From the NCBI GenBank assembly GCA_003345555.1, contig PRDJ01000004.1, positions 1-9,245 on the forward strand: 9,245 bases of DNA, written 5' to 3'. Below the pieces are notes generated by a model. The model saw only the letters and a list, made by a program, of their open reading frames with translations. It did not search any database and was not told where the DNA came from. This stretch comes from Candidatus Thorarchaeota archaeon. Its GTDB lineage: Archaea; Asgardarchaeota; Thorarchaeia; Thorarchaeales; Thorarchaeaceae. This document shows positions 886-9,245 of this stretch, piece by piece. Every line of letters starts with the position of its first letter. Position 1 is the stretch's first letter. The position numbers and the translations under genes were made by a program.

Positions 886-1135
886 CTATCCCTTCAGTCG
901 CATAGACATGCGGTCCATGTCGAGTACTCTTTTCAACAGATAATCGTGCATCTTGCACCTCTTCGCTTAAAGGATTGCTGTACCGAATCGGGCTATCGCG
1001 GCGTTCAAGGAAGGCCTGCCATTCCTTCGAGCTTTATCCTGGCGTATGGTCCCCCGAGTCAGTTCCTAAAGATTGAAGAATGGGTTTCTCGACAATCAGT
1101 TTCCTAGGACATCCGGCTTAGGGGATGACATTGCG

Positions 1136-2497
1136 ATGGTAGATGGAATCGTGATTATTGGATGTGGTGCAGCAGGAGCGACAGCTGCTATGCAGGCAAG
1201 GAAGTTCAACCGGAAAGTATCTATCACGATATTCAATTCAGAGCAGTATTCCCAGTACTCAAGGTGCGGCCTACCATATACGATATCGGGGAAGGTCAGA
1301 GATACCGAAGACTTGGTCCTGACTCCACCAGAGAGCTGGAAGGGATTGGGCATAGATGCTCGCCTAGGTACAACAATCACTGGTATCGATGCCAAGGTGC
1401 ATCGGCTGGAATACAGAGGAGCTGCCGGTGGAGGCACGATAGAGTATGATGCTTTGATATTCGCAACCGGTGCTCGGAATGCTGACCCTCCGATAAAGGG
1501 AATTGACAAGAAGCGTGTCTATGGTATCAGGACCATACCCGACGCCAAGGCTCTCTCTGGTGAGGCAACGAAAGCGAAGAATGTCGTTGTCATCGGAGGT
1601 GGAGTAGCCGGCATGGAAACAGCCGAGGCGCTCCATGAACGAGGCGTCCATGTTACCGTTGTCGAATTCCTGCCTAACGTCCTACTAGCCATGGTGGACC
1701 CGGATATGGCGGAGATTGTCGAAGAGCACTGCAGAAATCAAGGGCTGGAGATACTCACCAATGCTGCTGCACAGGAGATCCTTGGCGAGTCATCGCCAAG
1801 GGCTGTGAAAGTCGTCAGGAGAGACTCACAGGAGGTACTTGAGATAAAGGCAGACGCTGTTGTTGTATCCACAGGCGTTAGACCGGTCACTGATTTGGCG
1901 CAGAAGATCGGCGTGGAAATTGGGACAACTAAGGGGATAAAGACTGACGAGAGGATGTCAACTAATATCAAAGATGTCTACGCTTGCGGAGATTGCTCGG
2001 AGAATGTTGATTTCGTAACTCGAAAGCCCATGACGATGGGCTTGGGCACCCTTGCCGTTAGGCAGGGCCGCGTTGCAGGAATCAATGCCGCAGGTGGGGA
2101 CGAGAAGTTCCCGGGGATTGTTGGTGCAAAGGTGACCAAGATCTTCGGACTTGAAATCGCGAGCACGGGCTTATCCGAGGAGCTGGCCAAGCGCTTCGAG
2201 ATTGATGTCGTCAAAGGCTCAGTCAAAGGAAGCACAAAGCCTCCGTACTACATTGGGGGGAAAGATATCAAAATCAAGACGTTCTTCGATAAGCAAACTG
2301 GTAAGCTCGTTGGTGGCCAAATTGTAGGGACAGAGGATGCCGCCATGAGACTTAACGTCATAACGATGGGCATTCAGAACTCGATTGACGCCGCAGGTCT
2401 GTTTGACTTCGAGAATTGCTATGCCCCGCCAGTTTGCGAGACATGGGATCCCCTTGTCACTTCGGCAGATGCTGCGAAACGCAGGTTGAAAGGTTGA
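1136..2497 (+). CDS. FAD-dependent pyridine nucleotide-disulfide oxidoreductase, NADH oxidase / CoA-disulfide reductase family (single active-site Cys), ~453 aa
   Basis: FAD-binding 'IVIIGCGAAG'; active-site 'YSRCGLPY' (Cys42/43 equivalent); 'ATGA'; NAD(P)H-binding 'VVVIGGGVAG' followed by 'VTVVEF' (acidic residue suggests NADH); 'DVYACGD'; C-terminal 'YAPPVCETWDPL'. Start moved from 1073 to ATG 1136: in frame, preceded by GGGGATGA (1121-1128), and immediately before the first Rossmann strand. No rhodanese domain. Confidence 0.92.
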   Translation: MVDGIVIIGCGAAGATAAMQARKFNRKVSITIFNSEQYSQYSRCGLPYTISGKVRDTEDLVLTPPESWKGLGIDARLGTTITGIDAKVHRLEYRGAAGGGTIEYDALIFATGARNADPPIKGIDKKRVYGIRTIPDAKALSGEATKAKNVVVIGGGVAGMETAEALHERGVHVTVVEFLPNVLLAMVDPDMAEIVEEHCRNQGLEILTNAAAQEILGESSPRAVKVVRRDSQEVLEIKADAVVVSTGVRPVTDLAQKIGVEIGTTKGIKTDERMSTNIKDVYACGDCSENVDFVTRKPMTMGLGTLAVRQGRVAGINAAGGDEKFPGIVGAKVTKIFGLEIASTGLSEELAKRFEIDVVKGSVKGSTKPPYYIGGKDIKIKTFFDKQTGKLVGGQIVGTEDAAMRLNVITMGIQNSIDAAGLFDFENCYAPPVCETWDPLVTSADAAKRRLKG

Positions 2498-2504
2498 ATG
2501 CGGC

Positions 2505-2993
2505 TCAATCATGGGTGAGCAGCACTCGATTATTCAAAGCATACTGAAACGAACTGACTTGGATAGGAGAACCTGCAACAAGCACGGCCGTGCTGATGGT
2601 CCCTTTGTTAACTGAGTACTCATGGACGGCCTTGACAATCTCCTCAGCGACCTCCCAGCTCGGTACTCCCGCCACTTCGAGCCCGACCGTAAAGAAGCCC
2701 ACCTCCACTGCCTTCAGACCGTTAGCATCATCGAGGGCTTTCTTGGTCGCTTCATAGATCATTGTCCGTCTCCCGAAGTCCTTAAGGGAAACCTCTGGCC
2801 AGTAGGCGACTTTCTTTGCGAGCGTCATTTCTTGTACTTGGATGGCAGGGCCGACCTTGCCCGGAAACGTCCCGACTGCTTGCAGTGGCATGTATCCGAT
2901 CCTCTTTGACTTCACAACATAGTCCATTCCCACATCATCATGAGGACCGTTCTCAAGCTTGACGAGCAGACCATTCATTGACCACTCGTTCAA
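2505..2993 (-). CDS. Degenerate macrodomain-fold protein (pseudo-macrodomain), ~162 aa
   Basis: A 78-aa segment at its C-terminus aligns without gaps to the last 78 aa of the neighbouring macrodomain protein (22/78 identical by hand). The GDIT, NAAN and GGGV motifs are absent. Likely TTG start at 2993, 5 nt after GAGGTGA (2999-3005), which overlaps the upstream stop codon. Confidence 0.7.
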   Translation of the reverse strand: MNEWSMNGLLVKLENGPHDDVGMDYVVKSKRIGYMPLQAVGTFPGKVGPAIQVQEMTLAKKVAYWPEVSLKDFGRRTMIYEATKKALDDANGLKAVEVGFFTVGLEVAGVPSWEVAEEIVKAVHEYSVNKGTISTAVLVAGSPIQVSSFQYALNNRVLLTHD

Positions 2994-2998
2994 GGGAG

Positions 2999-3005
2999 TC
3001 ACCTC
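2999..3005 (-). promoter_or_regulatory. Shine-Dalgarno site GAGGTGA overlapping the TAG stop of the macrodomain gene (translational coupling)
   Basis: Plus strand 2999-3005 is tcacctc, read on the minus strand as TAG-AGGTGA-ctccc-TTG. Confidence 0.7.
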
Positions 3006-3526
3006 TAGATGTTCTTCAGAGCATCATCGAAGTTCTGGGCAATCGATGCGTTGAATGCAACAAGCACTACTCGGCGGACTGAGCCCGGATGCTTCGAATG
3101 CATTTTGATGGCCTCTACGATGGCACTCGCAGATTCCTCACCCGGCAAACCACCGACTCCAGCCCCAATTGCAGGAAGTGCAACCGAGCGAACGCCCTTT
3201 GACGACGCAAGCTTGAGACCTGCTATCACTGAGGTTTTGACCCTTGAGTAAGTAGCCTGACCTCCTGGGGGCATTCCTGCACAGTGAATGACATAGCGTG
3301 CCGCTAGCTTGCCTCCTGAAGTGATGATAGCCTCCCCGGCCTTGATTGGTCCTTGGGCCACTGCCTCTTTCTCAATCACGTCTCCTCCAGCATGTTTGAT
3401 AGCACCAGCGACGCCTGAACCCATCAAGAGGTCGGAATTGGCGGCATTGGCAATCGCTTCAACTGAAACCCTGGTTATGTCCCCGACGGTGCTTTCGACC
3501 TCAATATCCCCTACCTTGATCTTCAA
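3005..3526 (-). CDS. Macrodomain (Appr-1''-p processing / ADP-ribose-binding) protein, AF1521/YmdB-like, ~173 aa
   Basis: Motifs 'GDIT', 'AIANAAN', 'MGSGVAGAI', 'YVIHCAG', 'SVALPAIGAGVGG', 'VVLVAF'. Likely TTG start at 3526, with GAGGT (3535-3539) 8 nt upstream; the ORF track start at 3601 appears over-extended. Confidence 0.95.
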   Translation of the reverse strand: MKIKVGDIEVESTVGDITRVSVEAIANAANSDLLMGSGVAGAIKHAGGDVIEKEAVAQGPIKAGEAIITSGGKLAARYVIHCAGMPPGGQATYSRVKTSVIAGLKLASSKGVRSVALPAIGAGVGGLPGEESASAIVEAIKMHSKHPGSVRRVVLVAFNASIAQNFDDALKNI

Positions 3527-3534
3527 TTCGAATA

Positions 3535-3539
3535 ACCTC
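3535..3539 (-). promoter_or_regulatory. Shine-Dalgarno site GAGGT for the macrodomain gene
   Basis: Plus strand acctc at 3535-3539, 8 nt upstream of an in-frame TTG that begins the AF1521-like N-terminus (MKIKVGDIEV). Confidence 0.55.
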
Positions 3540-3663
3540 GTTTCAGTCCAGTAAACGAATTGACGCGCAATCGTAAAAGGCTGTTGAATTACGGTCATCA
3601 AGGCAAGAGCCGCGCGTGCTTGTCCGGCAGGTCTTTTTGGTTGATGTTTTCCTCCGGAATAGC

Positions 3664-4248
3664 GTGATTACCCCTTCCGATATCAGTGCCGGCGAGGTGG
3701 ATGCCCTCGTAAAGAAATACGGGCGACCGAGAAGGCTCAAGTTTGAGGCCGACTTCCTTGAGCCTGAATGTGAGTTGATCAGAGAAAGTACATCAAAAGG
3801 CCGCAATCATGACATCACCTGTTTCATCAAGAGCGGCGGAGGATATGTCGTAATCCAGAAGCCCGCCTACTCAGATACCGGCATCTTCAGAGCTCCTTCG
3901 GGCGGAGCACACCCGGGCGAGACCATAGAAGACGGAGCGAGTCGCGAGATGCATGAGGAGACGGGTCTAGAGATACGTCTCATCAGGTTCGTGCTGGATT
4001 TGTCTCTCACGGTCAACTGCGGGAAAGAGACGATTCCATGGCGGTCACTGGTCTTCCTCGCAGACATAGCGGGCGGCGAGATGAAGCCCATCGACTCTCA
4101 CGAGATTTCGGGCATAACTGTCATGACGAAGGAGCAACTCCTCGGTCCAGTGACCAAACTCATGAAGAAATCGGGAATGGGCGGCTTCAAGTACAGGGCG
4201 TTCCTGACGAAGTCTTTCTTCGAGGAACTCGAGAAGCTGAGGCGGTGA
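3664..4248 (+). CDS. Nudix hydrolase, substrate unknown (~194 aa; start uncertain between 3616 and 3664)
   Basis: Complete Nudix box GX5EX7REUXEEXGU: G-GAHPG-E-TIEDGAS-REMHEETGL. In-frame GTG at 3664 chosen tentatively as the start. Confidence 0.9.
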   Translation: MITPSDISAGEVDALVKKYGRPRRLKFEADFLEPECELIRESTSKGRNHDITCFIKSGGGYVVIQKPAYSDTGIFRAPSGGAHPGETIEDGASREMHEETGLEIRLIRFVLDLSLTVNCGKETIPWRSLVFLADIAGGEMKPIDSHEISGITVMTKEQLLGPVTKLMKKSGMGGFKYRAFLTKSFFEELEKLRR

Positions 4249-4491: not shown

Positions 4492-7400
4492 CTACTCCTT
4501 CTTGTCGATATGAATCACTATGTTTCCTCCTTGCAGGAAACCGTATGGGCCAAAGCCCGCCTCATGCCAAAGGACACCGTTCTTGTCGTAGACACGTATC
4601 TGGAAGACATCTCCCAATCCTTCTTCGGCGTTATCCCAGACATCAATCCGGAGGTTGTAGTTACCTTCAGACCATAGCAGCTCACCAGTCACCGAGTTGT
4701 ATTGCTGTACGACGCACTTTGCCTCAAAGAAGGAGTGGTTATCCACGATGGCCATGCCAATCCAGGCAGTGCTCTTGACTATGAATTGCCAATCGCCGAC
4801 TCGGTAGACATAGATTGCCTGTCCCTTCGGAAGACCGTTACTCTTGTATTTCACGTTGAAGCCGAAGTTGGCCTTCTGCCCGCTTGAGTCCCAGATCCAT
4901 CCCCCGCCAGTCGCGAAGTCACCCGTGGGTTCATAGACAACTATGTTGACGAAATCCGAGCTCGGACCCTGATAGTAGCTGTTAGCCTCACAGTCGAAGC
5001 TGACTCGGATCAGGTAACCGTTTTCGGGCAGGTTCGGTACCTCAATTATGAAGACGCCCACTCCGTCAACCTCTGTCCCCGAAATTGCGTAAGGGCCATA
5101 GGTTACGAATGGATTAAGTGGATCAAGTGGCACGGTGTAGATTCTGAAGGTCACCCATATCTTGGTAGGGTCACCCCAATAACCGTCATCATCATCAAAG
5201 ACCGTCGCTCGTAGAGTTATCGTATCAGCTGACAATGGTATGACTGTAGAACCAGTATAGTTTACAAGGGCGTATTCCTTCTCGATTATGAAATCATGGG
5301 CATCGGATGACGCAAGGTATTCCCCGTCCTCCACAAACCAAGCAGAAACCACGTATGACCCAGCTGGCTGATTCAGTATGACAGTGACGTTGGCAATGCC
5401 ATCTGAATTCGTGGTCGTCGAAGCAGTCTGGCTGCCTACAGAGAAGAATATCGTTTTGCCTTCTATCGGTAGTTGTGTAGCAACGTCAATCAGTCTGGCT
5501 GCCAGGTATGAAGGGTCAGAGTAGTTACCTGTAAATTCGTCAATATAGACGAGCTCGGAGGCGTTCACAACAATGTCAAAGGAGTGTTCAGACTCTACGT
5601 TTCCTGCCATGTCAGTACTCTTGTAGTAGACAGTATGCTCGCCTATCTCCAGCACATTGAACGGTCCCGCGTAAGTAATCCATTTTCCGGAATCTAAACG
5701 ATACTCTGTTTCATGGACCCCAGCGAGATTATCTGTGGGGTAGAGAACGAAATCGGTTGTAGTAGAAACATAGGTGTACGTATCACCTGACTCAGAGAAT
5801 GGAGGTAGAATTTCATGTGTCGTTTCAGGCGCAGTCTGGTCAATCTGGAAGTACATTGGGCTTTCCGTCTCGACTTTTCCGGCGTTGTCAATGGACCAGT
5901 ACTCCACTGTGTATGTGCCGTCGATATAGAACAGGACTGAACCAGTGTAGAGTACACTCGGTCCGCTATTCACCCTGTAGTAAGTCTCGAGGACGCCAGA
6001 TGTGACATCAATAGGTGTCAGACCAAGCTCGACTGGCGATACATACCAGTCGTTGTTTCCATCAGGAATCGCTGGTTCCAAGGAGGGTGTGGTGACCGGG
6101 TCTTCTGTGTCAATCTTGAATGAAGCGGTGTTGTGAGGCAGCTCAATGTTGCCGAGGTTGTCAACTGACCAGAACTCAATACTGTGGTACCCATTCCCCG
6201 ATTCTTCGAACATGCCCGTGTACAGCGTGACAGCACCTGAGTCGAGTATGTAATAGACCGATGCGACTCCGGTTCCAGCTCCATCGTCGAACGTCATGGT
6301 CACAAATACGCTGGAAACGTACCAATTATCATTTCCAAGGCTACCAGACAGTTCTTTGTGCGATACTGGCGCCGTGTTGTCGAGTTCATAGGCCGCTTCG
6401 TAGATGTCCTCAGTATTACCGAGCATGTCCACGGAGTAGTATTCGACACAATAGGTTCCGTCGATCCCAACTAGCATGAACTCGCCGCTATAGAGGATCC
6501 ATTGATCGTAGTTGATTCGGTAGTAAGTTGCATACACATCCGAGCCAGTGTCTATTGCGTCCAGTCCGAGATGAGTGTCGCTGGTGACATACGAGTTGTG
6601 TTCCGGCGTGCCTATATGGATAGTAGTTGTAGGCGGCGAGTTGTCTAGAATGAGTGTAGTAGAGAGTTCTGTTTCGGTATTACCGAAGGAATCCACAGCA
6701 TAGTAGTAGACAGTGTATTCGCCGTCAGCGCCCTCCAAAAAGAACGAGCCCATACGGGTCTGCCATTGACCATCGTTGACCTTGTAGTGAATACTCGCAA
6801 TACCAACACCGGTGCCATCATCAGCTGAAAGATCTAGAGGAGTATTTGATGTGACGCAGTCGCCCGCTACTGGTGTTCCCACATGAAGCGTGGTCACAGG
6901 TGGCGAGTTGTCTAGAGTGAAGGTCATGGATTTCTCAAGTTCTGTGTTTCCATAGAGATCCACAGCGAAGTAGTAGATGGTATAATCGCCGTCTTCTCCT
7001 ATCAGGAAGAACGGACCTTCATACGTCAGCCATGGTCCATCGTTGACCCTGTAGCGCGTATAGTCAACGCCGATTCCAAGACCATCGTCTGGACTCAACT
7101 CTAGACTGGTAGCTGAAGTGATGTATGAATCTACAAATGGAGTGCCTACGAGAAGGGTTGTCGTCGGAGCAACCACGTCAGTGACCGTAGCAGTAGAAGA
7201 TGCAGTACTCCACTCCTGATCCAAGAGTCCTCTGTCCAAGTCAGCATTGTAAGCAGTCACACTAATAGTGTGTGTGCCCACTGCACTAGGAACGGGATAA
7301 TCGCCAGCTGAAGATCCTGCAAAAACTCCGTCAATCTCCACCACGATGGAGTCGACTCCGCTCTCAGGATCTTCTGCAGAAACCGTCCAGTGACCCGGAT

Positions 7401-9245
7401 TTTCATACGTTGCTATGCCAGTGAAGTAAAGCTTGACGGTCACCCAAGAACTGGGGGCTCCATCTTCCTGTGAACTCACCCATGCTTCAAGGGTGTGAAC
7501 ACCAGGACTGAGAAATCCCAGAGTGTCCCACAGACTCACGGGAATAAAGCTCACATAGCGGTATCCTGTTGGAGAGTCGGCGAACATCACATGACTCATA
7601 TCATAGATGAAGGTCAATGTCTGTCCGGGAGATATTACGTTTCCCCTAACCTCATTAGGCGCGATAGTATAAGTCCCAATCCAGCCTCCAATACCATCCA
7701 GTCTGAACATGATCGCGCGTATCCCTGCCCAGTCCCTCGATGAACAATGGGCTGTGATCTCCATTGTGCACGAGGAGTAGGGCATGTTTGGTATTGTGAA
7801 GGTCTGAGTCGTAGGATTGGGCCAGTTTCCATAGACCTCTTCGAACGGAACCAATGGATCAAATGGGACGGCTGTGGTTATGGTGACAACTGGTGGACTA
7901 GTATCATCGTCCACGATTGTCACTGTGTCTTCTGCTGTGGAGCTATCTTGATCCAGCGGCCCCCAGTCCAAATCGGCATTAGTTGCGGTCACGTTGATTT
8001 CATGCGCCCCCAAGGAGTTAGGTACCGCGTATTCACCTGCTAAGGTGCCTACCAGATTTCCATCAACTTTCACGATAATAGTGCCAATTCCACTCTCAGG
8101 ATCAACTAGTGAGACTGTCCAGATGCCTGGACTCCCATCGGTAGCATCACCTGTATAGATTATCGTTATCGTCGGTCCTGTGATATCGTCATCGATCTTG
8201 ACAACCTCGAATAGAGTTTGCACATTGCCTGCATGGTCAGTAGAGGAATAGTAGACTTTATTCTCACCCTGAGTTGAGATAGTGAAAGGTCCTGAATAGC
8301 GAATCCAATTCGCACCATCCAGACTATACAAGGTCTCTGCAACACCCGAGATATCATCGCACGGTAGCAGAGTCATAATGACAGGAGAAACGTACCAATC
8401 ACCTACGTCGGGTGGTCTGTCAGCGGCGCTTTCGATTCTCGGCGCCATCTTGTCTATCTTCATGGCACCGTCTTCACGACGCTCATGTGCAACATCAAAG
8501 GCAAAAACTGCTACCCGAATCTCGCTACTGTCCACCGGAACAGTGACCGTGAAGGTAATTTCGTTGCCAGCACCATCAACCCTGTCGAAGTAGTGCCAGG
8601 AAGAATACGAGTCCCACATGTAGAACCATGCCATGGTGATTCCTGACAGGGAGTCGGTCACCGTGATCGTCGCCACGACCTCTGTGACGTACCAACCATT
8701 GTCACCCATCGTTCCATCAAGACTGATGACTATCGCAGGCGCCGTCTTGTCTATCCTGAAGGACTGTGATTCTGCTGCCTCCAGATTGCCGGCCTGGTCT
8801 GTGGAGTAGTAGCTGACTGTGTGTTCACCATCTCCCGATACAGTGAATGGGCCTTGATATCTTGTCCATGTCCCGCTATCAAGGCTGTAGTATGTCGTAG
8901 CCACTCCAGAGAGAACATCAGTGGCACTCAGGGTCACCGGGACATCCGTGTAGTACCAGCCACTCTCCGCGCTCCCTCCCAGCGCAATCGAGGTGTCAGG
9001 TGCCATCTTGTCTATCTTCATGGCACCGTCTTCACGACGCTCATGTGCAACATCAAAGGCAAAAACTGCTACCCGAATCTCCCAACTGTCCACCGGAACA
9101 GTGACCGTGAAGATAGCTTCGTTGCCAGTATCATAAACCCTCTCGAGGTAGTGCCAGGAAGAATACGAGTCCCACATGTAGAACCATGCCATGGTGATTC
9201 CTGACAGGGAGTCGGTCACCGTGATCGTCGCCACGACCTCTGTGA
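4492..9245 (-). CDS. Giant secreted/surface protein, 5'-partial (>1580 aa): tandem ~88-99-aa Ig-like beta-sandwich repeats (OmpL47-type-like), two Big/Ig-like domains and a C-terminal 'GGGW...GGNIVIH' domain
   Basis: Frame is open to the window edge. Recurrent repeat consensus 'D..(A/P)P.T......WY.S.V.......D..SGV..TYY.LD.G.W..Y.GPF....DG.HTV.YYS.D.AGN.E'. Repeat units at about 8737-8997, 8173-8439, 6898-7164, 6631-6897, 6367-6630, 6097-6366, 5827-6096 and 5560-5826. Variant units at 8998->9245 and 8440-8736; a second Ig type at 7891-8172 and within 7165-7890. Asp/Thr/Ser/Tyr rich, with no C-terminal transmembrane helix. Confidence 0.9.
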   Translation of the reverse strand, partial: TEVVATITVTDSLSGITMAWFYMWDSYSSWHYLERVYDTGNEAIFTVTVPVDSWEIRVAVFAFDVAHERREDGAMKIDKMAPDTSIALGGSAESGWYYTDVPVTLSATDVLSGVATTYYSLDSGTWTRYQGPFTVSGDGEHTVSYYSTDQAGNLEAAESQSFRIDKTAPAIVISLDGTMGDNGWYVTEVVATITVTDSLSGITMAWFYMWDSYSSWHYFDRVDGAGNEITFTVTVPVDSSEIRVAVFAFDVAHERREDGAMKIDKMAPRIESAADRPPDVGDWYVSPVIMTLLPCDDISGVAETLYSLDGANWIRYSGPFTISTQGENKVYYSSTDHAGNVQTLFEVVKIDDDITGPTITIIYTGDATDGSPGIWTVSLVDPESGIGTIIVKVDGNLVGTLAGEYAVPNSLGAHEINVTATNADLDWGPLDQDSSTAEDTVTIVDDDTSPPVVTITTAVPFDPLVPFEEVYGNWPNPTTQTFTIPNMPYSSCTMEITAHCSSRDWAGIRAIMFRLDGIGGWIGTYTIAPNEVRGNVISPGQTLTFIYDMSHVMFADSPTGYRYVSFIPVSLWDTLGFLSPGVHTLEAWVSSQEDGAPSSWVTVKLYFTGIATYENPGHWTVSAEDPESGVDSIVVEIDGVFAGSSAGDYPVPSAVGTHTISVTAYNADLDRGLLDQEWSTASSTATVTDVVAPTTTLLVGTPFVDSYITSATSLELSPDDGLGIGVDYTRYRVNDGPWLTYEGPFFLIGEDGDYTIYYFAVDLYGNTELEKSMTFTLDNSPPVTTLHVGTPVAGDCVTSNTPLDLSADDGTGVGIASIHYKVNDGQWQTRMGSFFLEGADGEYTVYYYAVDSFGNTETELSTTLILDNSPPTTTIHIGTPEHNSYVTSDTHLGLDAIDTGSDVYATYYRINYDQWILYSGEFMLVGIDGTYCVEYYSVDMLGNTEDIYEAAYELDNTAPVSHKELSGSLGNDNWYVSSVFVTMTFDDGAGTGVASVYYILDSGAVTLYTGMFEESGNGYHSIEFWSVDNLGNIELPHNTASFKIDTEDPVTTPSLEPAIPDGNNDWYVSPVELGLTPIDVTSGVLETYYRVNSGPSVLYTGSVLFYIDGTYTVEYWSIDNAGKVETESPMYFQIDQTAPETTHEILPPFSESGDTYTYVSTTTDFVLYPTDNLAGVHETEYRLDSGKWITYAGPFNVLEIGEHTVYYKSTDMAGNVESEHSFDIVVNASELVYIDEFTGNYSDPSYLAARLIDVATQLPIEGKTIFFSVGSQTASTTTNSDGIANVTVILNQPAGSYVVSAWFVEDGEYLASSDAHDFIIEKEYALVNYTGSTVIPLSADTITLRATVFDDDDGYWGDPTKIWVTFRIYTVPLDPLNPFVTYGPYAISGTEVDGVGVFIIEVPNLPENGYLIRVSFDCEANSYYQGPSSDFVNIVVYEPTGDFATGGGWIWDSSGQKANFGFNVKYKSNGLPKGQAIYVYRVGDWQFIVKSTAWIGMAIVDNHSFFEAKCVVQQYNSVTGELLWSEGNYNLRIDVWDNAEEGLGDVFQIRVYDKNGVLWHEAGFGPYGFLQGGNIVIHIDKKE
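6367..7164 (-). repeat. Older tandem triplication of an ~89-aa Ig-like unit (267-bp period)
   Basis: The three units share 'TT(L/I)..GTP....(I/V)TS.T.L.L...D' and end 'LDN(S/T)(P/A)P'. The exact 15-mer ggcgagttgtctaga occurs at 6635-6649 and 6902-6916. Confidence 0.75.
8444..8687. repeat. Intragenic direct repeat, copy 2 (244 bp visible; 558-bp offset to copy 1)
   Basis: Base-by-base comparison with 9002-9245 gives 234/244 identity. The mismatches are at 8524, 8526, 8555, 8558, 8559, 8571, 8573, 8577, 8584 and 8589. Confidence 0.97.
9002..9245. repeat. Intragenic direct repeat, copy 1 (truncated by the window edge)
   Basis: Matches 8444-8687 at a 558-bp (186-codon) offset. Identity runs to the last base of the window. 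Confidence 0.97.

Follow-up and report, generated by a model that had tools for sequence, protein, structure and literature searches.

Mosaic divergence in a tandemly duplicated two-domain unit of a giant Thorarchaeota repeat protein, probably shaped by patchy gene conversion

How do two copies of one protein domain, encoded within a single archaeal gene and letter-identical along most of their length, come to differ over one short stretch at sites that all change an amino acid? The question is raised by the window analyzed here, one whole contig of 9,245 nt from a 2.28-Mb Candidatus Thorarchaeota metagenome-assembled genome (MAG; 93.5% complete), which ends inside the repeat. A preliminary description of this DNA, made from the letters alone, had read the stretch as a hypervariable patch in a surface protein, and had proposed a diversity-generating retroelement (DGR), with both copies as variable repeats supplied by a template elsewhere and with gene conversion plus diversifying selection, or a strain-chimeric assembly, as alternatives.

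The repeat lies in the open reading frame of a giant OmpL47-type/Ig-like repeat protein (4492–9245, minus strand, as are its domains and patches given below) that is truncated at its 5′ end and encodes at least 1,583 aa. The frame was assigned from the ORF call together with Pfam and NCBIfam: Pfam returns the Ig-like families Big_13 and Big_3_3, barrel_OmpL47 (NF047446) matches nine stretches with 434.7 bits against a curated cut-off of 40 bits, and a C-terminal post-COAP-1 domain (NF041523; 4510–4917, aa 1443–1578) scores 46.3 bits, also against a curated cut-off of 40 bits. Judging from these family names, the protein is probably located at the cell surface; its N-terminus is absent from the assembly, and neither a protein search, nor an identity look-up, nor a search of the loose ends of the MAG contigs recovered the 5′ part of the gene. 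Counterparts elsewhere in the family share 42–71% identity with the C-terminal 350 aa. The same genome also encodes another OmpL47-type repeat protein, a 958-aa frame with at least seven domains (G000, contig C22, 21767–24640).

The remainder of the window includes a block (1073–4248) of NADH-oxidase-like, 165-aa unknown, Macro-domain and NUDIX genes, whose order is kept in most Thorarchaeota loci examined and which may form an NAD/ADP-ribose turnover cluster. The 165-aa protein (2505–3002, minus strand) has no Pfam match and shows a weak Macro-domain resemblance in one tblastn match. The best matches of the NADH-oxidase-like gene are to Ca. Thorarchaeota (86%, then 66–77%), other groups reaching at most 48%. 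In the Thorarchaeota loci of relatives that were examined, including the closest (L063, 86% oxidase identity), the giant gene is not adjacent to the NUDIX gene, and its position here is thus lineage-specific.

Direct comparison of the two copies of this domain, hereafter domain A (8444–8687 and 9002–9245), confirmed the core observation of the preliminary description, with exactly 10 differences in eight codons and none synonymous. In copy 1 the differing positions are 8524, 8526, 8555, 8558, 8559, 8571, 8573, 8577, 8584, and 8589, and the codon pairs on the coding strand are TTC/CTC (F/L), GAC/GAG (D/E), GAT/TAT (D/Y), GGT/GAT (G/D), GCT/ACT (A/T), ATT/GCT (I/A), ACC/ATC (T/I), and AGC/TGG (S/W), with 8 of the 10 differences at codon positions 1–2. 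The two copies are real, but the repeat does not end at 8687 as first described: contigs of the sequencing runs place the shared sequence at 8444–8746, one full domain. Copy 1 of domain A (8440–8748, ~103 aa) was delimited from homologs, a structural model and a 303-nt contig into which runs X3 and X5 collapse the domain, and copy 2 (9002–9245) is cut by the contig end 98 nt past the last difference. Ten differences would fall by chance within 66 nt with a probability of 3.5e-5 when 244 nt are considered, and of 5e-6 over the true repeat of 303 nt; the clustering is real. The patch is composite, being made up of a 35-bp core (8555–8589, counterpart 9113–9147; eight differences in seven codons, domain residues 54–65), a 28-bp identical tract (8527–8554), and the isolated S/W codon (8524–8526, counterpart 9082–9084), just before which, at 8523, the third record of run X1 ends. 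Domain A is thereby a mosaic of 80 identical bp, the patch, and 157 identical bp.

Assemblies of the sequencing runs that contain this DNA, all wetland metagenomes, place domain A within a larger duplicated unit. The evidence consists of contigs from four runs, of which X2 covered only the neighboring domain B; runs X7–X11, whose word shares are small, do not enter into it. The two copies of domain A are in frame and spaced 558 bp apart. In X3 and X5 they collapse to a single contig (8444–8746), the X1 graph forks at 8523/8524, which is the first variable site, and the junction leading from domain B into copy 2 (B1–A2) is present without any difference in X1 (record 8965–9031) and X5 (record 8948–9031). 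Record 21 of X5 (8717–8977) represents a second, mosaic-diverged copy of domain B (B2) beyond the contig end, joined to the same graph neighbors. A 47-nt piece common to both domain B copies (8948–8994) connects with A2 as well as with another upstream domain, and record 7 of X1 runs from this piece into an ordinary upstream domain. In X3, depth over domain A is 42.4 against 25.2 in the unique flank, a ratio of 1.68 (two copies of which one bubble arm was lost should give 1.65); the 47-nt piece has a depth of 54.7. In X1 and X3, shared segments reach ~1.7–2 times the depth; the X5 values scatter more and fit single-copy expectations poorly. Together, graph topology and depth indicate two tandem B+A units. 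In coding order, C0-B2-A2-B1-A1-rest is the simplest single-copy path and amounts to a two-domain tandem duplication of 558 bp, although no long read spans the whole unit.

The consensus letters of copy 1 are stable. A JGI contig (L021), which may stem from the same site as the window and is not a fully independent sample, covers copy 1 with a letter-identical patch; outside the patch, 13 SNPs and a single gap separate it from the window over 8.5 kb. The copy 1 patch consensus is identical in L021, X3, and X5, as read from contigs, from which rare variants are dropped; the copy 2 patch was read directly in the window contig alone. Past the last difference the window stops at 98 nt and L021 at 123 nt, as would be expected if assemblers using words of those sizes had stalled in the 157-bp identical block. 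Within the giant gene, L021 differs from the window by W>C, G>S, and I>V replacements and three synonymous changes (window:4567); of its remaining seven SNPs, five lie close together in the LCM methyltransferase gene (337–582).

The second half of the unit is also mosaic. Copy 1 of domain B (8747–9001), a canonical OmpL47-type domain characterized here from X5 record 21, depth and a codon tally, differs from B2 in three diverged blocks at 8747–8782, 8812–8877, and 8914–8947 (36, 66, and 34 bp). Between them lie tracts without listed differences of ~29, 36, and 47 or more bp, similar in size to the 28-bp identical tract within the patch; the list of differences leaves out three differences and the 66-bp block. 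Of 17 changed codons, 12 are nonsynonymous and five synonymous, a nonsynonymous share that does not differ from that of the patch (Fisher P = 0.14). Patchiness and an excess of amino-acid changes thus characterize the unit in its entirety rather than a single 66-bp stretch. The picture of a patch inside an otherwise perfect repeat holds for domain A, but that repeat is one half of a 558-bp duplication.

We consider a tandem two-domain duplication followed by patchy gene conversion under weak constraint to be the probable origin of this pattern. Under such a model, the 558-bp B+A unit would have been duplicated in tandem within the giant gene, the copies would have diverged under weak constraint, and short intragenic conversion tracts would then have overwritten the greater part of domain A and some of domain B. 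Islands of earlier divergence would be left over, and the patch would be one such island, positioned on a β-hairpin region that also varies among distant homologs. Gene conversion, previously offered as an alternative, is supported by the two-unit graph topology and by the mosaics in both domains; conversion as the cause, and the order of events, are what we infer from them. Repeat pairs in relatives also show identical tracts (35–132 nt) amid diverged stretches. Against this reading, no recombination intermediate or donor was observed. No near-identical duplication was seen in the giant proteins of relatives that were examined, and no ortholog carrying both copies was found in the other strains or species searched. 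Among the relatives, one giant protein contains a 108-bp tandem unit of 95–98% identity (L053, G008:C10), and another contains 261-bp units with identical tracts of up to 43 nt (L038, G003:C4).

The strongest competitor keeps the duplication and the conversion and adds selection. On this account, which we regard as unlikely while giving it real weight, the island was retained by selection for two versions of a putatively exposed hairpin, conversion tracts crossing it were purged, and the putative benefit would be that one protein has two specificities, for binding or for evasion. All eight changed codons alter the residue, and the patch has a pN of ~0.20 and a pS of 0. Control repeat pairs from the giant proteins of relatives, chosen for high DNA identity, contain 149 synonymous and 102 nonsynonymous changed codons (59% synonymous of 251), and relative to these the amino-acid excess is significant for the patch (0 of 8 synonymous, P = 9e-4). 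Additionally, none of the 14 same-residue codons across the whole 22-codon patch is changed, compared with 5 of 13 in the diverged blocks of domain B (Fisher P = 0.016), so the patch does not simply date back as far as those blocks; for the 35-bp core alone the corresponding count (0 of 5, P ~0.09–0.25 at the domain B rate) is unremarkable. Several observations weigh on the other side. First, ~23–28% of random changes here would be synonymous, and the lack of synonymous change departs from neutrality with a P of just 0.036–0.07, for a patch picked after the fact. Second, domain B has a similar excess over the controls (5 of 17 synonymous, P = 0.02). Third, variability among homologs is not significantly higher at the changed sites than in other columns of the domain (P = 0.12) or of the patch (P = 0.36). 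Of the earlier suggestion of conversion with diversifying selection, the first component is therefore supported and the second is marginal. The amino-acid rate of the duplicated unit is roughly neutral or slightly elevated, for which relaxed constraint after duplication suffices, and positive selection on the hairpin is possible.

Structural and comparative analysis of domain A bears on the same choice. Among OmpL47-type domains, A forms a long subtype (~103 aa) to which NF047446 alone gives no match; it is present in 4 of 86 family genomes, and its homologs in other giant proteins share 29–37% identity. The predicted model (pLDDT 95.9) is an all-β sandwich of seven strands with no helix of four or more residues, and a Foldseek search with it gave weak β-sandwich matches only, none at E 0.001 and none significant in the PDB. 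Whether the changed residues cluster on this model had been posed as a check: seven of the eight (residues 54–65) fall on two adjacent predicted strands (52–61 and 63–70) and the turn between them, which favors the account with selection, and the isolated S/W codon lies apart. At positions 55, 58, 59, and 64, the copy 2 residue recurs in 3–6 of 16 homologous domains, as tolerated substitutions would. An initial association of the changed sites with the most variable homolog columns (P = 0.005) disappeared after realignment (P = 0.36). A stronger claim, that the archaeon keeps two deliberately different binding-hairpin versions in twin domains through balancing selection against conversion, or else mutates them by an RT-independent or remote-template process, seems to us distinctly unlikely, and mutagenesis of an internal β-sandwich is by far the less likely arm of it.

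We judge it very improbable that two strain alleles of one domain were artificially joined in tandem, as the strain-chimeric alternative supposes. In its favor, the contig ends inside the repeat, the copy 2 patch letters come from the window contig alone, and the X5 depths fit single-copy expectations poorly. Other contig ends of the MAG overlap with 1–7% differences (C8/C66, C21/C26, C41/C61, and C43/C76 of G000), suggesting that strain variants are mixed within it. Against it stand the difference-free B1–A2 junction in two runs, the raised depth of shared segments in X1 and X3, the X1 fork exactly at 8523/8524, and the shared 47-nt piece that leads both to A2 and to another upstream domain. 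Furthermore, because identity extends for 80 bp on one side, words of ~99 nt, an assembler setting deduced from the contig end, would phase each patch with its own unique flank.

The DGR reading, in which the reverse transcriptase (RT) and template would lie in unassembled DNA or in a mobile element, is the least credible of all. Points in its favor are that most of the changes fall at codon positions 1–2, that the 5′ part of the gene is missing from the MAG, that remote DGR targets exist (PMC8144416), and that some Asgard MAGs are reported to contain DGRs (PMC7495880). A weak further point is the scarcity of A-ending codons in the patch (1 of 22); 46 of 1,294 22-codon windows elsewhere in the gene (3.6%) have one or fewer. 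The expected machinery was not detected. No match to PF00078 occurs in the 93.5%-complete MAG, from which contigs under ~5 kb are missing, and no RT was found in three other genomes of the genus or called near the four domain A homologs examined. Of the 86 family genomes, five carry RTs. The ones tested either have a group II intron or retron RT as their best-scoring type or are left unclassified, their short contigs hold no neighboring repeat pair, and none of the 86 genomes yielded a DGR-like RT/TR/VR cassette. The bAvd profile (PF22296) has no match in the genome and none above cut-off across the 86, although it is insensitive, with 0 of 14 controls above cut-off. In one relative's MAG, a 4-kb contig (L035, G104:C134) holds a retron-like RT whose neighbors are a ThiF/E1-like gene and an unknown ORF of 363 aa; this may be a defense or phage element or a binning contaminant. 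Another relative's MAG has a 3-kb contig (L034, G013:C5) with a LINE-like endonuclease-plus-RT frame split in two, probably eukaryotic contamination.

A template was likewise not detected. BLASTN at word size 7, combined with a direct scan allowing A or T at any site, found only the two known copies in the genome, the best third match agreeing at 33 of 56 invariant sites, and there was no match in viral contigs or Rfam. None of 752 HSPs genome-wide, taken whole, is an A- or T-biased repeat pair. A 60-nt window in contig C36 with six of seven mismatches at A is unrelated to the giant gene and was judged to be chance.

The letters of the patch also argue against adenine-directed mutagenesis. Mismatches between DGR templates and variable regions lie overwhelmingly (≥75%) at adenine (Roux et al., 2021, PMC8144416). 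Here, A is present at just 2 of the 10 variable sites in each copy, and 4 of 10 differences have A on one side while six have none, which argues against an A-template because two variable regions derived from one template should mostly keep A at a difference. The caution that many patch adenines are invariant was well founded, as 12 are, including an AAC codon. A one-parameter A-template model is rejected (G = 11.1, P = 0.0009), a test that selection on invariant residues could weaken, and counts for C, G, and T are similar to those for A, so that no base is favored. Position and fold are also atypical. DGR variable regions are typically C-terminal and in C-type-lectin folds (PMC8144416), whereas the patches lie >1,300 aa from the C-terminus in an internal β-sandwich domain, and self-BLAST found no repeat or template matching the C-terminal post-COAP-1 region, the expected variable-region site. 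The premise that Ig-fold DGR targets are known is disputed, since earlier Ig-fold assignments failed on re-analysis (PMC8144416). The copy 1 consensus, unchanged across the assemblies compared, points the same way.

As read here, the locus represents routine concerted evolution in a repeat protein, and its practical lesson is one of caution, in that two coding repeats at the end of a contig, differing by a nonsynonymous patch, can be mistaken for DGR variable regions. Were the hairpin indeed under selection, the patch would point to a binding surface in an uncharacterized giant Thorarchaeota surface protein. A genuine DGR with an internal Ig-like domain as its target would break the near-universal rule of C-terminal C-type-lectin targets, and nothing found supports one.

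Comparison with known systems places the locus accordingly. It resembles DGR variable regions in having a short nonsynonymous block, mostly at codon positions 1–2, amid identical sequence, and differs from them in lacking RT, Avd, template, and adenine bias, in affecting an internal β-sandwich, and in having a copy 1 consensus that is unchanged across the samples compared (PMC8144416). It resembles OmpL47-type (NF047446) and post-COAP-1 (NF041523) proteins, with nine stretches and a C-terminal end above curated cut-offs, and is unlike them in its longer domain A and in a near-identical duplication not present in the relatives' proteins examined. Conversion is described in repeat-rich surface proteins such as the yeast FLO adhesins (PMC3512402), and in primate CEACAM Ig domains it is combined with selection on binding surfaces (PMC8860441). 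Both systems consist of duplicated extracellular domains that conversion has partly homogenized into mosaic copies. On the reading favored here, the Thorarchaeota duplication is a fresh instance of this known and ordinary process, here within one gene of an uncultured Asgard archaeon and between two copies only.
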